NCBI GenBank assembly: GCA_965197385.1
Contig: CBDANA010000008.1
Coordinates: 31,717 to 95,716, forward strand
Direction of reading: 5' to 3'
Length of the DNA stretch: 64,000 nucleotides
From: Vicinamibacterales bacterium
GTDB lineage: Bacteria > Acidobacteriota > Vicinamibacteria > Vicinamibacterales > UBA823
Positions 14,071-34,443 of the stretch are shown in pieces. The notes beneath the pieces were generated by a model. The model did not search any database. It was not told the DNA's origin and was given only the letters and a program-made list of their open reading frames with translations. Numbering within the stretch: position 1 is the stretch's first letter; every line of letters begins with the position of its first letter. The translations under genes were made by a program, and so were the position numbers.

Positions 14071-14125
14071 CCTGGCGGGATGCATCGGCGGTCGAATGCA
14101 GCGGGACTTTCACCACGGGTTGCTA
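14071..14125. repeat. Half copy (~53 bp plus TA) of the MITE found intact at 17446-17639
   Basis: TGGCGGGATGCATCGGCGGTCGAATGCAGCGGGACTTTCACCACGGGTTGC-TA is the reverse complement of 17448-17500 with 3 mismatches over the 53 bp. It is cut on its inner side by the IS110-family element. Confidence 0.8.
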
Positions 14126-14194
14126 AGGCTGCCCGGGCCAGGGACGTGTTTGCCCGACACGAGGGTACAATCTCGACCTAAGGCCTCTCCACCC

Positions 14195-15699
14195 ATGGCT
14201 AAACCAGTGGCTGAACCAGGCCGCTTGCGCGTGTCCCGCCTCGTCCCGGCCGTCTGGCTGTGCTTGCTGCTCGCTGGCGGCACTGCCCAGGCGCAGGTGC
14301 CGGACCAGGAGCATGACCTCGGCGCCGGCGACAGCGTCATCCAGATCCTGGGCGGTCTCCTGTTCGACTCGGTGGGCGACAGCGTCCGGCCCAACCCGGG
14401 TCTCCTCATCCGAAACGGCGTCATCCTGGCGGTCGATGCGGAGCTGGGCGACGCCCCACGCGCCGGGGCGACCGTCATCACGCTTCGGGACGACGAGACG
14501 ATCCTCCCGGGACTCTTCGACCTGCACGCCCACTACGCCGTGGACCTGTTCGGCGAGGGCCGGGTCGACGAGTACGACGTCAACCCGCTGGTCTTCCTGG
14601 CGAACGGCGTCACCTCGACGTTTCCTGCCGGTGAGGTCGATCCGGAGGGCATGCGCGCCGCGCGGCTGCGTCTCGACGCCGTGGAGCAGATCGGGCCGCG
14701 TCTTTACAATTCGGGACCCTATTTCGGGACGGCTCGGCCCGGTTGGCAGGCCGGCGACGTCACCGCGGCAGACATTCACCGCGACGTGGACGCCTGGGCG
14801 GCCAAGGGCGCACGGGGGTTCAAGGCGAAGGGAATCCGTCCGGAGCATCTCGAGATCCTCATCGCGCGCGCACACCTCCACGGCCTGCCGGTCACCGGAC
14901 ATCTCGGATCCGGATACCGGCGTTCGGTCAATCCGCGCGATGCCATCGCGATGGGCATCGATCGCATCGAGCACTTTCTCGGCGGCGACGCCCTCACCTC
15001 CGATCGATCGGCCTACGCGTCGCTCGAGGTGCTGGACACCGCGCGCCCAGAGGTCGCGGCGATCATCCAGCAGTATCTCCGCCACCGGGTGTTCTTCGAC
15101 CCCACGCTGACCGCCTACGGATACTTCGGGCAGCGTGAGCCGACGGTGTACGAGTACTGGGCCGACGAGATGGCGCTGCTCACGCCATACGCGCGACGCG
15201 TCGTCGAATCGCGTCTCCCTCGCCGCGTCAGCGCCCAGTTCGAGAGAATCTACTGGATCAAGCGGCGGACCCTGAAGGCGTTCTACGACGCGGGCGGCGC
15301 CGACCTGATCACGCTCGGCACGGACCATCCCAGCTGGGGGGAGTTCTTCTCCGGCTTCGGATCGCACCGGGAGCTGCACGCGATGGTCCTGGCCGGCATT
15401 CCCGAGGCGGCGGCGCTCAAGATCGGCACGATCAACGGCGCCGGGCGCTCGGCGTGAGCGACCGGCTGGGGACGATCGAGCCGGGCAAGCTTGCCGACCT
15501 GATTGTCGTCGCCGGTGATCCGCTGCAGGACATCCGCATGACCCGGCGGGTACGCCTCGTCGTGAAGGCGGGTATCGCCTACGATCCGGCCGAGTTGCTC
15601 GAGTCGGCCCGCGGACGCTTGGGGCCGGCCAGCCAGGACGACGCCGACTGGTGGAAAGGCCGCCTCCGGTTCGCGTCGGCGCGCGAGGAGCAGCCGTGA
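14195..15699 (+). pseudogene. Secreted amidohydrolase-family protein, split by a 1-nt frameshift near 15440-15445
   Basis: ORF 14096..15457 (..ILPGLFDLHAHYAVD..GHLGSGY..IDRIEH..) ends ..KIGTINGAGRSA*. ORF 15454..15699 continues SDRLGTIEPGKLADLIVVAGDPLQDI..VVKAGIAY, the canonical amidohydrolase C-terminus. Adding one C in GCCGGG would restore ..TINGARALGVSDRLGTIEPGK... Confidence 0.85.
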
Positions 15700-27963: not shown

Positions 27964-28968
27964 TTAGCGTCTCGACGCCGAAACCCTGCCGGCGGTCTCG
28001 AGCATCGCGTCGGTGGCCGCGCGACTCACCTCGACGAGGCGCGCCGCCACCCCGTCCCGGGATCGGGTGCCGGGGGTCGGCTGCTCGGCCATCACGACGT
28101 AGACAATCACGCCCTCCGGTCCATCCCAGAATCCCGATCGAATCCGGGTCATCGGGTCGCTGCCGAGCGATCCGCTCTTGAAGTAATGCATCCCCAGCGA
28201 GCCGTCATCCTCCGGCACTCGCAGGATCTTCCAGAGCGCGGTCACCGTGTCGCTCGAGAGCCCGGGCAGGTCGCGTGCGGCCACTCGCTGCAGCACCGCA
28301 GCCAGCGCCGCGGCCGTGGCCTCGTTGTCGCCGGTGACGTCGCGGGCTGCGAGCATGTAGCGCCGCACCACGAGCCCGCCGAACGCCGGATCCCGATCGT
28401 GGATGAGGCCGGTCAGCGCCTCCGGGCCGCCCAGCAGCGCGGTCGTGACGTTCGCCGCGGCGTTGTAGACCGCGTTCGACACGTCGGTGCCGCGGATCAT
28501 CATCTACCCGATCCGCCGGATCGTCGCATCGGCGATCTCGGCCCGTATGTCGGCCCGGTCGTCTACCGTGAAGTGCGCGATGGCCGGGTGGGCGTCGTCG
28601 TTGACGATCGCATCGGCGCCAGACGCCGGCGCGTCGAGCGCGTCGGCATAGGCGGCGAACAGCTCGATCAGATAGGCGGTCCTGATGGCGCTGGCCGACG
28701 CCCGGATCGTCGAGGCCTCGCGCGCGAACCAGGCCTCGCCGGTCGGTCCGCCGACCCACACGCTCAGCGCCAATCCGTCGCCGCGGCCTGGCGTGACGAG
28801 CGCGTCGAGACGCCGGTCGAGTGCCTCGACGTCGACCGTTGGCGTCGGCACCTGCGCCGGATTGGCCGATTGCGGCTCGACGGGCGGCGCGCCGTAGCCG
28901 GCCACCCACAGCCCAGCCACCAGGGCTAGCAGCTGACTCGGCCGGCTAGTCGTCCATCCAGCGCTCAT
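27964..28968 (-). pseudogene. Class-A beta-lactamase-fold serine hydrolase interrupted by an in-frame TAG (28504-28506)
   Basis: ORFs 28504..28968 and 27964..28503 are contiguous in one frame: ..ATIRRIG*MMIRGTDVSNAVYN.. The SxxK position reads SAIR (..RASASAIRTAYLIELF..) and a KSG motif is present (..HYFKSGSLG..). Confidence 0.65.
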
Positions 28969-29009: not shown

Positions 29010-30635
29010 TCATGGCACCGACGGCGGCGCCGTGTGCTCACGATATTCGGCTGGATCGATCGGCACGTCGATCACGACCGGATCGCCCGTCCGCCGGCCC
29101 TCCCGCACCGCCGCCTCGAGCCCGTCCAGCGTCGTCACCCGGCGGCTCCACGCGCCCAGCGCGGCCGCCGCGGCAGCGAAGTCCGCCTCACCGTACCGGA
29201 CGCCGCGTTCGGTGAGACCGCGGCGCGATTGCGCCTCCTGAATCAGGCTGAGCGACGCGTCGTTGAACACGACGACCACGATCGGCAGCTGGAGTCGCAC
29301 GCAGGTCTCGACGTCGGCCAGCGTCATGCCGAATCCGCCGTCGCCGATCGTGCACAGCACCGGACGCCCGGGATGGACCAGCGTCGCCGCCATGGCCGCC
29401 GGCAAGCCGTAGCTCATCGAGGACAGCCCGTTCGATTCGAAGAAGGTCATCGGCTCATAGGTCGTCCACACCTGCGACGTCACGAACTTCACGGACCCGA
29501 CGTCGGTCGTCGCAATCGTCTCGCGCGGCAGAATGTCCCGCAGACGACGGACGACCGCGCTGGGGGACAACCCGGCCTCCCCGGATGCGGCCGGCTCCAA
29601 GATCGACGCCAGCCGCCGTCGAAACGTCGTCAGCTTGTCGTCGGTCCACTCGACGCCGCCCAGGTCGGCATCGCTCAGGGCCGCCAGCGACTCCCCGACC
29701 GCCCCCGCGAGCTCGAGCGCCGGGCGGAACCGGCCCGCCGCGATCGACAGTGGGCCGATGTTGACCAGCGGCGTCGTCTGGTGCCAGAGCTTGTCCGATT
29801 CGACCGGCTCGAATCCCACACCGACGAGCAGGTCGGCCGACGTCAGAAAGTCCACGATGGCGCCGTCGCCCGACACCCCGGCGCACACGCCGAAGAACTG
29901 CGGGTGATCTTCGGACAGCATGCCCTTGGCCTTCGGCGTCACGAACACCGGCGCGCCCAGGTGCTCGACGAACCGGCGGACGGCGTTGGCGTCATCGGCC
30001 ACGAGGTCGAGGCCGAGCAGGACGACGGGACGACTGGCCTCGCGCAGCCGTGCGATCATCTGCCCGATCGCCTCGGCTGAGGGGGATGGCACGGGCGCGG
30101 GCTCGAGCGGCTCGTCGGCCGGATCGGAGATCTGCCAATCAGCCACCTGGGCAACGTCACTCGGCAGGGCGATGTGTACTGGACCCATGCGCGGCTCCAG
30201 CGCCGTACGGAACGCCCGGCGGACTTTGCGGGCCGTATCCTCCCCGTCGAGCGTCAGCGCCGCCTTCGTGAATGGCCGGTAGACGGCGTTCAGATCGAGC
30301 TGTTGATGCGTCACGTACGGCCGGACGGCCGTGGACGTCGCGGCAGTGATCGCCAGGAGCGGCGAGCGATCGAGAAACGCGTTGGCGACCCTGAGCGTCA
30401 TATTCACGGCGCCTGGACCGAGCGTGGCGACGCAGACACCGGGTCGCCGGAGCATCTGGCCGGTCGTATCCGCCATGAACGACGCGGTCGCCTCGTGCCG
30501 CGTCAGCACGAAGTCGATGTCGACCCGGCGGGCCGCCTCGACGAAGTCGAGGATCTCGCCGCCCGGCAACCCGAAGACCGTCGTGACGCCGCCTGCCTTG
30601 AGCGTTCGGGCCAGCACCTCGGCGCAGGTCGGCAT
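29010..30635 (-). CDS. Thiamine-pyrophosphate-dependent enzyme (acetolactate-synthase-large-subunit-like)
   Basis: 541 aa; ..VTTVFGLPGGEILDF..THEATA.FMAD..G.....GVC.ATLGPGAVN.. and a C-terminal ..IGDGGF.M...E..T.VR..LP...VVFND.. Confidence 0.85.
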   Translation of the reverse strand: MPTCAEVLARTLKAGGVTTVFGLPGGEILDFVEAARRVDIDFVLTRHEATASFMADTTGQMLRRPGVCVATLGPGAVNMTLRVANAFLDRSPLLAITAATSTAVRPYVTHQQLDLNAVYRPFTKAALTLDGEDTARKVRRAFRTALEPRMGPVHIALPSDVAQVADWQISDPADEPLEPAPVPSPSAEAIGQMIARLREASRPVVLLGLDLVADDANAVRRFVEHLGAPVFVTPKAKGMLSEDHPQFFGVCAGVSGDGAIVDFLTSADLLVGVGFEPVESDKLWHQTTPLVNIGPLSIAAGRFRPALELAGAVGESLAALSDADLGGVEWTDDKLTTFRRRLASILEPAASGEAGLSPSAVVRRLRDILPRETIATTDVGSVKFVTSQVWTTYEPMTFFESNGLSSMSYGLPAAMAATLVHPGRPVLCTIGDGGFGMTLADVETCVRLQLPIVVVVFNDASLSLIQEAQSRRGLTERGVRYGEADFAAAAAALGAWSRRVTTLDGLEAAVREGRRTGDPVVIDVPIDPAEYREHTAPPSVP

Positions 30636-30665
30636 CTCTCACCAGTAGCGCGGGATGTTAGTCCG

Positions 30666-31445
30666 TTAGTACCCGCTGCCGCCGCCCCGGGCCGAGTCCG
30701 GCACCGACGCCTGATAGATCACCCGGCCGACGAAGAACGGGCCCATCGCCTGGATGAACTCGGAGGTCTGGCGAGTGAATCGCATGTCTTTGATCAGCTT
30801 GGACAACGGATACAGGTCCGGCCCGAGAATGCCGAGCACGAATTCATTGTCGTCCCGATCCAGGCCGTGGCACTCCAGCCGAATGTCGACGGCATGGCCG
30901 GCCTCGCCGTAGCCGCGCCCGATCATCGCGTGCTCGCCCATGATCTTCGCCTGCTCGCCCCGCGGAAGCCGGTTGAACGCACCGAAGCGCCTGAGTGGAT
31001 ACCACACGGCCCACTCGAGCTCTGGGTTGAGCGCGTGCCGCCGCGCCTTGCGCAGCAGGAAGTCTTCCACGTCTGGCTCCCGGCCGCCCGCATACGTCCG
31101 ACCGAGCATCGTGAAATCTGGAAGGGGCATCAGCGCGGTGAACTCCGGCGTGAGGAACAACTCGCGCGCCACGGTGGCGAAGTGGCGCGGATCCTCCGTC
31201 AGCACCAGCACACCGATACCGCGCGGATCGTTCACGTTGGCGTAGACCACGGCTTCCAGCCCACTCCGCCGAACCGCCTCGACCGCCGGCGCTGTGTCCA
31301 GCACACCGGTAAACACCTGCAACTGCACGAACAGCCGCCGATCGAGCGTCTGCGGCGCGCCGCGCCGCGGCCCGCCATGCTCCAGCAGGTCTGGAACGAA
31401 GCGGTCGAACGGCGCTCCCCCAACTGATGCGTGTCGGTCACCCAT
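30666..31445 (-). CDS. Chlorite-dismutase-family protein (Cld/HemQ-like)
   Basis: ..WAVWYPLRR...FN.LP..EQ..IM.EH...GR.Y......D.RL.CHGLD..DNEFV.G..G.DL.PLS.L...MR.T.QTS.. The start is the ATG at 31445 (a GTG lies at 31448), directly abutting the hexanucleotide array. Confidence 0.7.
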   Translation of the reverse strand: MGDRHASVGGAPFDRFVPDLLEHGGPRRGAPQTLDRRLFVQLQVFTGVLDTAPAVEAVRRSGLEAVVYANVNDPRGIGVLVLTEDPRHFATVARELFLTPEFTALMPLPDFTMLGRTYAGGREPDVEDFLLRKARRHALNPELEWAVWYPLRRFGAFNRLPRGEQAKIMGEHAMIGRGYGEAGHAVDIRLECHGLDRDDNEFVLGILGPDLYPLSKLIKDMRFTRQTSEFIQAMGPFFVGRVIYQASVPDSARGGGSGY

Positions 31446-31446
31446 C

Positions 31447-31562
31447 ACTCATACTCATACTCATACTCATACTCATACTCATACTCATACTCATACTCAT
31501 ACTCATACTCATACTCATACTCATACTCATACTCATACTCATACTCATACTCATACTCATAC
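31447..31562. repeat. Perfect hexanucleotide microsatellite, (ACTCAT)x19 plus AC
   Basis: Counted directly: 114 nt of uninterrupted ACTCAT units from 31447 to 31560, followed by AC. It is AT-rich in a GC-rich context and reads (ATGAGT)n on the minus strand. Confidence 0.98.
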
Positions 31563-31653
31563 GCTGATGCCTCGCCCCGGGCACCCTCGGCGGCGCCCGA
31601 ACGCACGGATCTTACCTCGGGAACGGCATGGCGGTCGCGCCCGGCGGCACGGC

Positions 31654-32603
31654 TTACGCGCCGTCGAGAACTGCTCGCACCTTTCGGGTGAGGGTCTCCT
31701 CCGTCAACGGTTTCGGCAGGAACGCGAGCCCAGGCTCCAGGACCCCGTGGCGCACGATCAACTGATCGGCGAACCCGGACATGTAGAGCACTTTCAGCGT
31801 CGGACAGAGCTCGGAGGCGGCCATGGCCAGCTCCCGACCGTTCATACCCCGCATGACGACGTCGGTCAGCAGCAAATCGACCCGGCCGGCATGGGCGCGG
31901 CATTCACGTAGCGCGGCCGCGCCGCCCGACGCCTCGATGACGGTGTAGCCGCTCTTCTGGAGGACCTGACGGGCCAGCTGGCGCACGGACTGCTCGTCGT
32001 CGACGAGCAAAATCGTCTCGGTGCCGCGGGGATTCGCGCTCGACGCCTCGGGCGCGGTCGCCGAGTTGGCTGGCCCCTCGACTTCCGGCAGATAAATTCG
32101 GAAGGTCGTCCCCTGCCCCGGCTCGGACTCGGCCGTGATCGTCCCGCCACTCTGGGTGACGATGCCGTAGGCGGTCGACAATCCGAGCCCGGCCCCCTTG
32201 CCGCGAGGCTTCGTCGTGAAGAACGGCTCGAAGACATGCGCACGCGTCTCCTCTCGCCGACCAGGGCACGCAGGCGCGGCGCGCAGCGACTGACGAACGA
32301 TCCGAGATCGACGATCTGCGGCTGGAGAATCTGCCGCTGACTGAACGCCAGCAACTGGTTCGTCAGCTCGGCCGCGCGCTGCCCGGCGCCCAGAATTTTC
32401 TTGACGTCGTCGACCCTCGCGTCGTCGCCCGGCAACGCTTCCAGCACGATCTGGGCAAAGCCATTGATGGTCGTCAGCAGGTTGTTGAAGTCGTGGGCGA
32501 CACCGGCCGCCAGACGACCGATCGCCTGCAGTTGCCGTGTCTCCTGGCGCTGGTCTTCGATCGTCAGAGTCTTGGTGACATCCTCACGTAGCCGCTTGGT
32601 CAT
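31654..32603 (-). pseudogene. Remnant of a hybrid sensor histidine kinase/response regulator (no sensor domain, internal deletion of most of the ATPase domain, frame change)
   Basis: ORF 31866..32603 has the H-box ..[20 protein letters not shown].. then ..[24 protein letters not shown], after which the frame is lost. A third frame reads ..[33 protein letters not shown].. and continues into ORF 31654..32181, which has an intact REC domain (..[22 protein letters not shown]..). The N and G1 boxes are missing. Confidence 0.8.
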
Positions 32604-32757
32604 TGAGTCATAGGGTCATCGAATCACTGGTCGCCGGCGTACAGCTGCGCGGCGGCGTCTGCTCGGCGCTGCACGAAGCACAGCCTATCAGCCCGTCGAG
32701 TATGCTACACGCTGGCAGGGTCGTCCATCGACACGAGATGCACAGCCTTGAAGGTCA

Positions 32758-34443
32758 ATGAATGACGTTGCCATGACAGAAAGACGTCCGATCCTCATCG
32801 TCGCTAGCGGCGATTCCAGGCGCAGCGCCAACCGCCGCTGCTGGCCGACCCAGCAGGCGCTCGAGGCGGCCGTCGGGGCCGCGATGACGGAGCTGGGCCG
32901 GGAGACGCGTCGGGCCCACGCGCCCGACCCGGACGCCGGCCATGGCTTCATCGACGGCCAGGCTCGAGGTCTCGAAGTGTTTCGCCGCGTCGACCCCCAG
33001 GCCCCGCTCGTCGTCGCCACCGCCGTCTGGCAGTACACCAGCCACGTGCTGGCCGGGCTCACCCGTCATCGGGGGCCAATCCTGACGCTCGCGAACTGGA
33101 GCGGCGAGTGGCCGGGTCTCGTCGGCCTGCTCAACCTGAACGGCTCGCTCACCAAGGCCGGCATTTCGTACAGCAGCATTTGGAGCGAAGAGTTCAGAGA
33201 CGAGTTCGCCACCCGCGCGCTACGCGAGTGGCTGGACCACGGCCGGATCACGCACGACCTGTCCCACGTCAACCCGTTCGACGAACGCCCCTGGTCAGAC
33301 CGGTTCAACGCACACCATGAGCCGGAGACCCGCGGCCGGGCCCTGGGCGTGAGCCTGCGCGCCGACCAAGCGATTCTCGGTGTGTTCGACGAGGGGTGCA
33401 TGGGCATGTTCAACGCCATCGTGCCCGACCACCTGCTCCACTCCCTCGGCCTGTTCAAGGAACGGCTCAGCCAGTCCGCGCTCTACGCCGCCATGCTCGA
33501 GGTGAAGGACACGACGGCCCGGGCGCATCTGGCCTGGCTCCGAGAGCGAGGGATGCAGTTCGTCCTGGGCCCGGACCCCGAGCAGGATCTGACCGAGGAG
33601 CAAGTGCTTGAGGGGCTGAAGATGTACGACGCGGCGGCCCGTCTGGCCGACCGGTTCGGTTGCGCCGCCATCGGCATCCAGTATCAGCAAGGCTTGAAGG
33701 ACCTCTGCGTCGCCTCGGATCTGGCCGAAGGCTTGCTCAATAATCCGGACCGCCCGCCGGTGGCCGGCGATGACGGCCGGCCCGCCTTCGACGGCCTGGC
33801 CATTCCCCATTTCAACGAGGTGGACGAGTGCGCCGGCGTCGACGCACTGCTGACCCACCGGGTGTGGACGGCGCTGGGCCTTGACCCGTCCACGACGCTG
33901 CATGACGTGCGCTGGGGCGAGGCCGTTCGTGCGCATGGGGTGGATGAATTCGTCTGGGTCTTCGAAATCTCGGGCGCGGCGCCCGCCAGCCATTTCATCG
34001 ACGGCTATGCGGGTGCCGTCGGCGAGCGCCAGCCGGCGATGTACTTCCCGGGCGGTGGCTCGACGCTGAAGGGCATCAGCAAGCCGGGTGAGATTGTCTG
34101 GAGCCGCATCTACGTCGAGCGGGACGCGCTCCACATGGACATCGGGCGCGGCGGCGTCGTCCGGCTGCCCCGCGACGAAACCGAGCGGCGGTGGCGCCTG
34201 ACCACGCCGCAGTGGCCAATCATGCACGCCGTGCTGTACGGCGTCGGCCGCGACCAGCTGATGGCGAAGCACAAGGCGAACCACATCCAGGTGGCCTACG
34301 CGCGGGATGACGCGTCGGCGCTCGACGCGCTCGTGATGAAAGCGGCCATGGCCGACGAGCTGGGCCTGCAGGTGAATCTGTGCGGCCAGATCGTCGACTC
34401 GCTGGACCGGCATCAGGCGCCGGAGCACCGACACCGACGATGA
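32758..34443 (+). CDS. Putative sugar isomerase of the L-fucose/L-arabinose isomerase superfamily
   Basis: 561 aa. The assignment rests on a general resemblance (..[32 protein letters not shown]..) and on translational coupling (ATGA) to ribulokinase. It is tentative. Confidence 0.45.

Follow-up and report, generated by a model that had tools for sequence, protein, structure and literature searches.

The long hexanucleotide array in front of a chlorite-dismutase-family (Cld) gene is probably a microsatellite derived from that gene's own start codon, expanded from three to 19 units in a single strain and forming an upstream open reading frame (uORF) of variable length before Cld. Judged from the alignment of orthologous gene starts, the repeat unit ATGAGT corresponds to the first two codons (Met-Ser) that the gene had ancestrally, start codon and codon 2, and the array as a whole forms a (Met-Ser)19 uORF; both points had been missed by the original prediction. 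The window, by which we mean the whole 64,000-nt stretch analysed, carries the following features around the array (L-numbers denote the genomes, contigs and loci with which it was compared).

29010..30635, minus strand: gene for an acetolactate-synthase-like TPP-dependent enzyme, 30 nt downstream of Cld and in the same order in L122-L135
30666..31445, minus strand: chlorite-dismutase-family gene of 259 aa, with its ATG at 31445 and an alternative GTG at 31448 (Pfam PF06778)
31438..31560, minus strand: uORF of 40 codons by translation, (Met-Ser)19-Asp-Gly-stop, with an equivalent frame layout at three units in L122-L130
31445-31443, minus strand: ATG, the start codon of the gene, directly after the junction G
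31446, minus strand: junction G, with the same junction in eight independent assemblies (L122-L129) and G-ATGAGT in L130
31447..31562, minus strand: hexanucleotide array (ATGAGT)19, its full units running from 31560 down to 31447 and the GT before them continuing the period
31570..31573, minus strand: GAGG Shine-Dalgarno (SD)-like motif, 9 nt ahead of the first array ATG, conserved across orthologues
31576..31601, minus strand: GC-rich leader stem-loop GGGCGCC...GGUGCCC, situated between -10-like box and SD and predicted for the leader with 19 units as well as for that with three
31609..31614, minus strand: -10-like box TAAGAT, a putative promoter element, conserved in L001, L130 and L135 and represented by TAGAAT in L002
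31654..32603, minus strand: remnant of a hybrid histidine kinase that retains HisKA, the end of HATPase_c and the receiver; ~242 nt are missing internally, and the frame changes at ~32253

Direct reading and Tandem Repeats Finder agree on (ACTCAT)19.3 at 31447-31562, with a period of 6, 100% matches, no indels and a score of 232; it is the sole long array within the 64-kb window, where the next-best array scores 70. Head-to-tail units within the 1-9 nt range of microsatellites and VNTRs are thus present in 19.3 copies at 100% identity. The two-unit 12-mer ATGAGTATGAGT, searched with at most one mismatch, gave 18 overlapping matches, all on the minus strand and all inside the array, against an expectation of 0.06 from shuffles, and GC over the array drops to 0.505 (200-nt window) against 0.61-0.75 in the surroundings. 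The perfect (ACTCAT)x19 at 31447-31560 plus AC that had been described for an otherwise GC-rich window was therefore confirmed by reading, by Tandem Repeats Finder and by the GC profile. The claim that it abuts the Cld start also holds, since the G at 31446 is directly followed by the ATG at 31445-31443, and the GTG at 31448-31446 overlaps the last array unit on the minus strand. What follows the junction G is a degenerate 20th unit, ATGGGT, which constitutes the present start codon and codon 2, and the distance from the last perfect unit to GAC is 7 nt (G + ATGGGT) rather than 6. Owing to this single G, the array ATGs lie at +1 relative to the Cld frame, in which the units read GTA TGA, in agreement with the TGA at every second codon that had been described, and the array is out of frame with the gene.

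Since the junction G sets the array ATGs out of phase with the gene, the array encodes a separate 40-codon uORF. Its stop codon, TGA at 31440-31438, lies across codons 2-3 of Cld (ATGGGTGA), the stop/start overlap as a whole reading AUGGGUGA. The layout is that of a uORF with an SD and an AUG at its entrance (GAGG-N9-AUG) and a stop within a few nucleotides of the main start, here a UGA overlapping the start at AUG 31445-31443. A unit of two codons means that a change in copy number shifts neither the uORF nor the Cld frame and that the overlap is retained, in agreement with the earlier statement that a 6-nt unit leaves the reading frame unchanged. With frames and stop/start overlap independent of length, the tract is free to expand and a frameshift-type phase switch is impossible; the array could be a translational rheostat at most, not a phase switch. 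An assembly error in a homopolymer (GGG versus GG), by which the array would in truth be in frame, was considered and rejected, the same junction being found in the eight independent assemblies and in L130; an identical junction in eight assemblies shows that the junction is real.

The origin of the array is seen when orthologous loci, found via protein relatives, are aligned: the array begins exactly at the position of their single ATG. The gene starts compare as follows.

L135 and L136: GAGG-N9-ATGAGT-GACCA...
L001: GAGG-N10-ATGACT-GACCGACAC
L002 (87% aa, fully syntenic): GAGG-N9-ATGAGC-GAT...
L131-L134 and L155: GAGG-N9-ATG-GACCGACAC
Window: GAGG-N9-(ATGAGT)19-G-ATGGGT-GACCGACAC

An ancestral 5' end of the form ...GAGG-N9-ATG AGT GAC CGA CAC... 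would have been duplicated in tandem, with the one-base offset due either to an inserted G or to a first duplication that spanned the 7 nt ATGAGTG, and the outcome would have been the (ATGAGT)3-G-ATG(A/G)GT-GAC common to the whole clade. Natural intermediates (one unit; three units with the one-base offset; 19 units) thereby trace the birth of a microsatellite and a uORF from a start codon. Eight contigs from eight ENA assemblies, one of them a 4.38-Mb circular contig, represent the same species (L122-L129). The seven that are complete at this position (L122-L125, L127-L129), all from different samples, have exactly (ATGAGT)3-G-ATGGGT, and the eighth, L126, starts inside the tract and has an identical junction. 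L122-L127 are ~99.0% identical to the window over 6.8 kb, and apart from the array no length difference among the conspecific assemblies can be ascribed to the window. L130, which is 95% identical to the window and has an intact 397-aa kinase, carries (ATGAGT)3-G-ATGAGT. From this distribution, (ATGAGT)3-G is the old, stable state of the clade, and three units in seven conspecific assemblies and in L130 imply that the 19 units are a strain-specific, derived expansion (+96 nt). Only two allele sizes, 3 and 19, occur among the assemblies, the latter in a single one; this is the copy-number difference between near-identical genomes by which a VNTR is recognized. Replication slippage is the simplest way in which the perfect tract of the window strain could have lengthened from 3 to 19 units; the added units lie in its uninterrupted portion, upstream of the break in the repeat, which is where slippage would be expected to act. 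When DNA hairpin formation was considered as a driver of slippage, neither strand of the array was found to fold, so that structure offers no explanation of why expansion took place here and nowhere else.

The 19-unit allele and its like were also sought more widely. Exact-protein look-ups in a public contig index, using Cld with ATG and GTG starts, the TPP enzyme and the receiver remnant, returned no second 19-unit haplotype, and the junction pattern ATGAGTGATGRGTGACCGACAC had 0 matches in JGI metagenome contigs. A protein scan of metagenome contigs yielded 80 orthologous loci, three of which start with a single ATGAGT; tandem ATGAGT copies were absent from the 45 nt before and the 24 nt after the inferred starts of all 80.

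Two further observations concern the Cld gene in this clade. A 12-nt (4-codon) deletion in its N-terminal part, at ~31410-31420 on the minus strand, lies between two GCGCCG direct repeats (compared with L001 415-440); it is confined to the window and L122-L130 and marks the same clade as (ATGAGT)3-G. When L128 and L129 were set against L131 and L122, the body of the gene in L128 showed a dS of 0.012 to the array-less L131 as against 0.067 to L122, and the 5' leader and array of L128 are of the window type (99.8%), which suggests recombination within the Cld gene between co-occurring lineages.

The original prediction had the array take the place of a leader and ribosome-binding site, supply a -10 hexamer (TATGAG) in each unit and, through its length, alter promoter spacing and helical phase. 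None of these proposals could be sustained. The comparison of orthologous intergenic regions that it advised did reveal a variable copy number as anticipated, but the leader and ribosome-binding site proved to be collinear upstream of an array born at the start codon. The motif GCGAGGCATCA, which contains GAGG, is conserved in the window, L130, L131 and L002 although the leader of L002 has otherwise diverged; L135, L136 and L001 have the variant GAGGCA, and in array-less orthologues GAGG stands 9-10 nt before the single ATG. The sequence of the leader stem-loop is conserved in L001, L130 and L135, and TAGAAT boxes occur ahead of the start in many distant orthologues, so that TAAGAT is a plausible promoter element upstream of the array. 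With GAGG, -10-like box and hairpin all upstream, the array lies downstream of the leader and ribosome-binding site and does not replace them. TATGAG lacks the conserved final T of a -10 hexamer, and a consensus promoter scan found no full promoter-like site in or across the array, nor at TAAGAT. Since the conserved -10-like box and SD both precede it, the array presumably lies in the transcribed 5' leader, transcription starting from the conserved upstream promoter a few bases past TAAGAT; spacing and helical phase of the promoter would then be unaffected by unit number. The suggestion that the array is a rearrangement scar did not survive either, given that the deletion junction in the kinase (~32253) is ~700 nt away and the leader is collinear with that of relatives whose kinase is intact.

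At the RNA level, the predicted fold of the 19-unit leader has -79.4 kcal/mol (z -5.9); in it the array forms a single long hairpin built from UAUG/UAUG helices, which relies on G-U pairs and tandem G-A mismatches, and the 3-unit leader folds no better than shuffles (z 0.08). No intrinsic-terminator-like site was found in 30400-32800 and no Rfam leader or riboswitch family in the leader. A transcription attenuator of the leader-peptide type was rejected on these grounds, neither a terminator nor an antiterminator being present in 30400-32800 and no Rfam leader family being recognized. A TRAP-type site is defined by at least nine GAG/UAG triplets separated by 2-3 nt in a leader, together with the TRAP (MtrB) protein. 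The array has 19 GAG triplets at 3-nt spacing and hence the sequence part of such a site, in a window that covers only 64 kb of the genome. A Fur-box-like site was likewise entertained as a possible reading of the hexamers.

Leaders of another kind were seen at many distant orthologous Cld loci among L137-L215 (e.g. L180, L184, L196 and L204), where a TATAGAAT box precedes the ATG by only 5-12 nt. In those lineages this would point to Cld transcripts that are leaderless or nearly so, as against the ~45-nt SD-containing leader of the window.

How the array might act follows from its geometry, from which both translation of the uORF and stop/start coupling are presumed. With the array between the conserved SD and the present Cld start, ribosomes that bind at GAGG would begin at the first array AUG, make (Met-Ser)19-Asp-Gly and stop at the UGA overlapping the Cld start. 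Production of Cld would then depend on termination-reinitiation or on initiation independent of an SD. No SD-like motif is found at -7 to -18 of the Cld AUG, and since such a motif is present at only 9 of the 29 called starts in this lineage, SD-independent initiation at Cld is plausible; by the same token ribosomes could go straight to the Cld AUG, and the uORF would perhaps be of little consequence. AGT is rare (2.7 per 1000 codons and 5.6% of Ser codons), and the uORF has 19 AGU codons. More units would thus mean a longer decoy ORF rich in a rare codon, more competing AUGs and a self-pairing RNA hairpin, and a longer array would probably lower expression of Cld and of the downstream TPP enzyme, whose gene is probably co-transcribed with Cld. 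The further step of regarding the array as a heritable, frame-neutral rheostat, in which slippage alters the (Met-Ser)n uORF and thereby dials Cld-TPP expression, and which would be one case of a wider, undescribed multi-phylum class of ATGAGT starts, is speculative and in our judgement quite improbable. If length does tune translation, SSR-based tuning of expression would extend to a non-surface gene of a non-pathogenic soil Acidobacterium; if it has no effect, the array is a clean strain marker (VNTR). Either way there is a caution for annotation, in that the SD-proximal ATG is not the start of the gene.

The assignment of the downstream gene to the chlorite-dismutase family, as originally made, was substantiated by a Pfam Chlor_dismutase match (E 1.4e-12) and 5181 homologues; those named by source are few and mostly from Acidobacteria MAGs. 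Identity with the coproheme decarboxylase HemQ/ChdC was rejected, the ORF scoring 36.8 bits against an NCBIfam equivalog cut-off of 253 (NF008913) and 27.3 bits against the HemQ_actino cut-off of 235, far below both, with membership at the level of the Pfam family only. The best PDB match is a coproheme decarboxylase (E 1e-7), and these sub-cut-off scores together with the weak PDB match point to an uncharacterised clade of the family. Pairwise dN/dS of Cld is 0.10-0.20 between array-bearing lineages, from which it follows that the gene is under purifying selection and has been expressed and constrained with the uORF in place.

It could be asked whether the expansion is instead an early step of silencing and decay, that is, a neutral or mildly harmful lesion by which expression of the Cld operon is reduced or lost, in a gene cluster where selection was already relaxed. 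The neighbourhood supplies most of what speaks for this. Upstream of the array, the original prediction of a decayed kinase proved right: the gene encodes a histidine kinase that is complete in L002, L130 and L135, has lost ~242 nt internally in the species of the window and is, independently, almost wholly deleted in L001 (1-290) and in L131-L134 (L131 2678-3000). Downstream, the TPP enzyme gene is split into two ORFs in L132, L133, L134 and L135 and is intact in the window, L122-L127, L130 and L131. A 334-aa beta-lactamase-like gene (27964-28968), two genes downstream of Cld, has an in-frame TAG at 28504-28506 on the minus strand where four conspecific assemblies have CAG (Gln), a nonsense mutation specific to the window strain. 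Cld itself has two derived substitutions on the window branch at well-conserved positions, T106M and P247S. Set against this, the Cld ORF is intact, M at 106 and S at 247 also occur in other Cld homologues, and the low Cld dN/dS in the array-bearing lineages indicates a constrained gene. The nonsynonymous:synonymous ratios on the window branch are alike in the four genes tested and similar to those on the L122 branch, with few changes to go by, and among these four genes no decay signal specific to Cld was detected on the window branch, again from few changes. We therefore regard decay as unlikely, though not negligible. Farther away in the window, an amidohydrolase paralogue (ORF 14096-15457, plus strand) has apparently lost its last ~50 residues through a frame change near 15442; the homology resumes in another frame up to 15597, which reflects either a real frameshift or an assembly error. 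No tRNA genes were found in the window.

Long perfect repeats also recall contingency loci, and a slipped-strand switch had been part of the original prediction. An adaptive contingency locus would imply a hypermutable tract whose frequent and reversible length changes switch or grade the Cld operon. The system closest to such a case is the hypermutable rheostat of hmw1A/hmw2A in H. influenzae, where a heptanucleotide SSR lies in the 5'-UTR (Dawid 1999, cited in PMC2651432; PMC12721329). Expression of hmw falls as the repeat number rises, in a graded manner and not by frameshift; the repeat RNA forms part of a long hairpin, the system is RNase III-dependent, carries at least 11 repeats in nature and is hypervariable, and the product is an adhesin (PMC12721329). 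The array resembles this arrangement in being a long perfect SSR between a putative promoter and the start codon, in what we take to be a leader, with a copy number that differs between conspecific strains (3 versus 19) and a long RNA hairpin, which folding predicts for the expanded form alone. Its 19 perfect units imply recent or ongoing slippage, and contig L126 begins inside the tract. The hmw unit, however, is 7 nt long and has neither a start codon nor a uORF, whereas here a 6-nt unit consists of a start codon and codon 2; and in place of a hypervariable tract of at least 11 repeats before an adhesin gene there is a stable common allele of three units before a Cld-family gene. The variation in unit number between strains that a switch requires was thus found, but there is no sign of hypervariability, with three units in seven assemblies from different samples and in the 5%-diverged lineage L130, so that the locus appears to be stable as a rule. 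Against a true contingency locus speak both the constancy of the 3-unit allele and the kind of gene involved, which encodes a cytoplasmic protein of a heme-enzyme family and not a surface, host-interaction or restriction-modification function; so does the position of promoter and SD upstream of the array, where their spacing is unaffected. At contingency loci of H. influenzae such as lic1A, slippage in an intragenic tetranucleotide SSR toggles the frame ON and OFF, and no role in phase variation was found there for hexanucleotide SSRs (PMC2651432). The array shares with loci of the lic1A type its place at the very start of a gene and the presence of several potential initiation codons, but their unit is not a multiple of three, and a 6-nt unit cannot toggle the frame. 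All in all we consider a contingency locus quite unlikely.

The start-codon-derived microsatellite with its uORF can be set beside three other kinds of element. Leader ORFs of bacteria may be coupled to the main gene through overlapping stop and start codons, and known leader peptides are of fixed length and often sense a metabolite or antibiotic via alternative RNA structures. The uORF is like them in being a short SD-led ORF that ends a few bases from a main start without a good SD, and differs in being a length-variable microsatellite with no terminator or antiterminator found. The 6-bp repeat in rpoT of Mycobacterium leprae, present in three or four copies, is an in-frame VNTR used for strain typing. 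It has in common with the array a 6-nt unit, a strain-variable copy number and a retained gene; it lies inside the coding frame, however, and varies by one unit, in contrast to a uORF with a 16-unit jump. The genes that begin with in-frame (ATGAGT)n (GatB and others, below) have the same unit with the same apparent origin from an ATG and an AGT codon directly after a ribosome-binding site, but there the protein is lengthened, whereas here the one-base offset creates a separate uORF overlapping the true start. In kind, then, the array is a bacterial leader SSR/VNTR; what is new is its out-of-frame, start-codon-derived form with a length-variable uORF.

That the true tract has three units and that 19 were produced by the assembler or polisher is very unlikely. 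The 19 units do occur in one assembly only, with no second copy of the haplotype in the public contig index, but the array is perfect, its flanks match HiFi-style contigs base for base without other indels, a 3-unit tract (~21 nt periodic) would presumably be too short for a copy-inflating de Bruijn loop, and genomes of isolates contain (ATGAGT)n arrays of 10-23 units. Hardly credible is a programmed +1 frameshift at GGG-UGA-C by ribosomes coming from the first array AUG, which would give Cld a variable N-terminus of (Met-Ser)n-Asp-Gly-Asp-Arg-His...: the SD is well placed for that AUG, the uORF ends in UGA followed by C, a weak-stop context like that of the prfB shift site (CUU-UGA-C), tRNA-Gly slipping by +1 from GGG to GGU would land precisely in the Cld frame, and in-frame (Met-Ser)n N-termini are tolerated on other proteins, yet a strong SD-like stimulator is missing from the position 3 nt upstream of the shift site, GGG re-pairs poorly on GGU, an AUG already stands at the junction and makes such a mechanism needless, and the relatives are too nearly identical for conservation of the junction to be informative.

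In order to place the start-codon-derived microsatellite among comparable sequences, GTDB species genomes were scanned for exact (ATGAGT)4, which gave more than 119 stretches. Among the matches listed, only one array is longer than that of the window, with 23 units in Paenibacillus campi. In several genomes (ATGAGT)n is in frame at real gene starts and yields N-termini of (Met-Ser)4-10, as follows.

L096 1914-1973, minus strand: in-frame array of 10 units, GatB, Actinomycetes MAG
L117 (6677-6700) and L100: in-frame arrays, ABC-transporter ATPases
L074: in-frame array, beta-galactosidase
L070/L106: in-frame arrays, PaaI-type thioesterase
L024 and L038: in-frame arrays, Paenibacillus proteins

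Such in-frame (Met-Ser)n starts indicate that amplification of ATGAGT at the start codon recurs. A coherent class of gene starts with amplified ATGAGT, whether in frame and giving the (Met-Ser)n N-termini of GatB, ABC ATPases and others or out of frame as a uORF, is the wider part of the rheostat reading given above and is equally doubtful.

Other ATGAGT arrays are intergenic. Those of Paenibacillus and Bacillus (L050 7304-7399, the orthologous L069, L059, L014 and L101) consist of 15-23 perfect units. In L050 and L069 the array is followed by a ribosome-binding site and the start of a conserved 78-aa protein (VEVTAQDVAEW...), and in L069 a sigma-70-like TTATAAT box precedes the array, the upstream flank of L050 being unsequenced; in L059 TTGACA...TAATTG is found just upstream. 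The GAG-N3 periodicity of these arrays is reminiscent of TRAP-type RNA sites. Yet another arrangement was met in Verrucomicrobiales, Akkermansiaceae and related MAGs (L021, L033, L039, L041, L060, L075, L082, L086, L099, L108, L111 and L115). The window contains no inverted partner arm of the kind found in these genomes, where (ACTCNT)n, a short spacer and (ANGAGT)n form long hairpins that recur several times in a genome and frequently stand immediately upstream of long ORFs, and these Verrucomicrobiales hexamer hairpins look like a family of inverted repeats with GAGTAN units.
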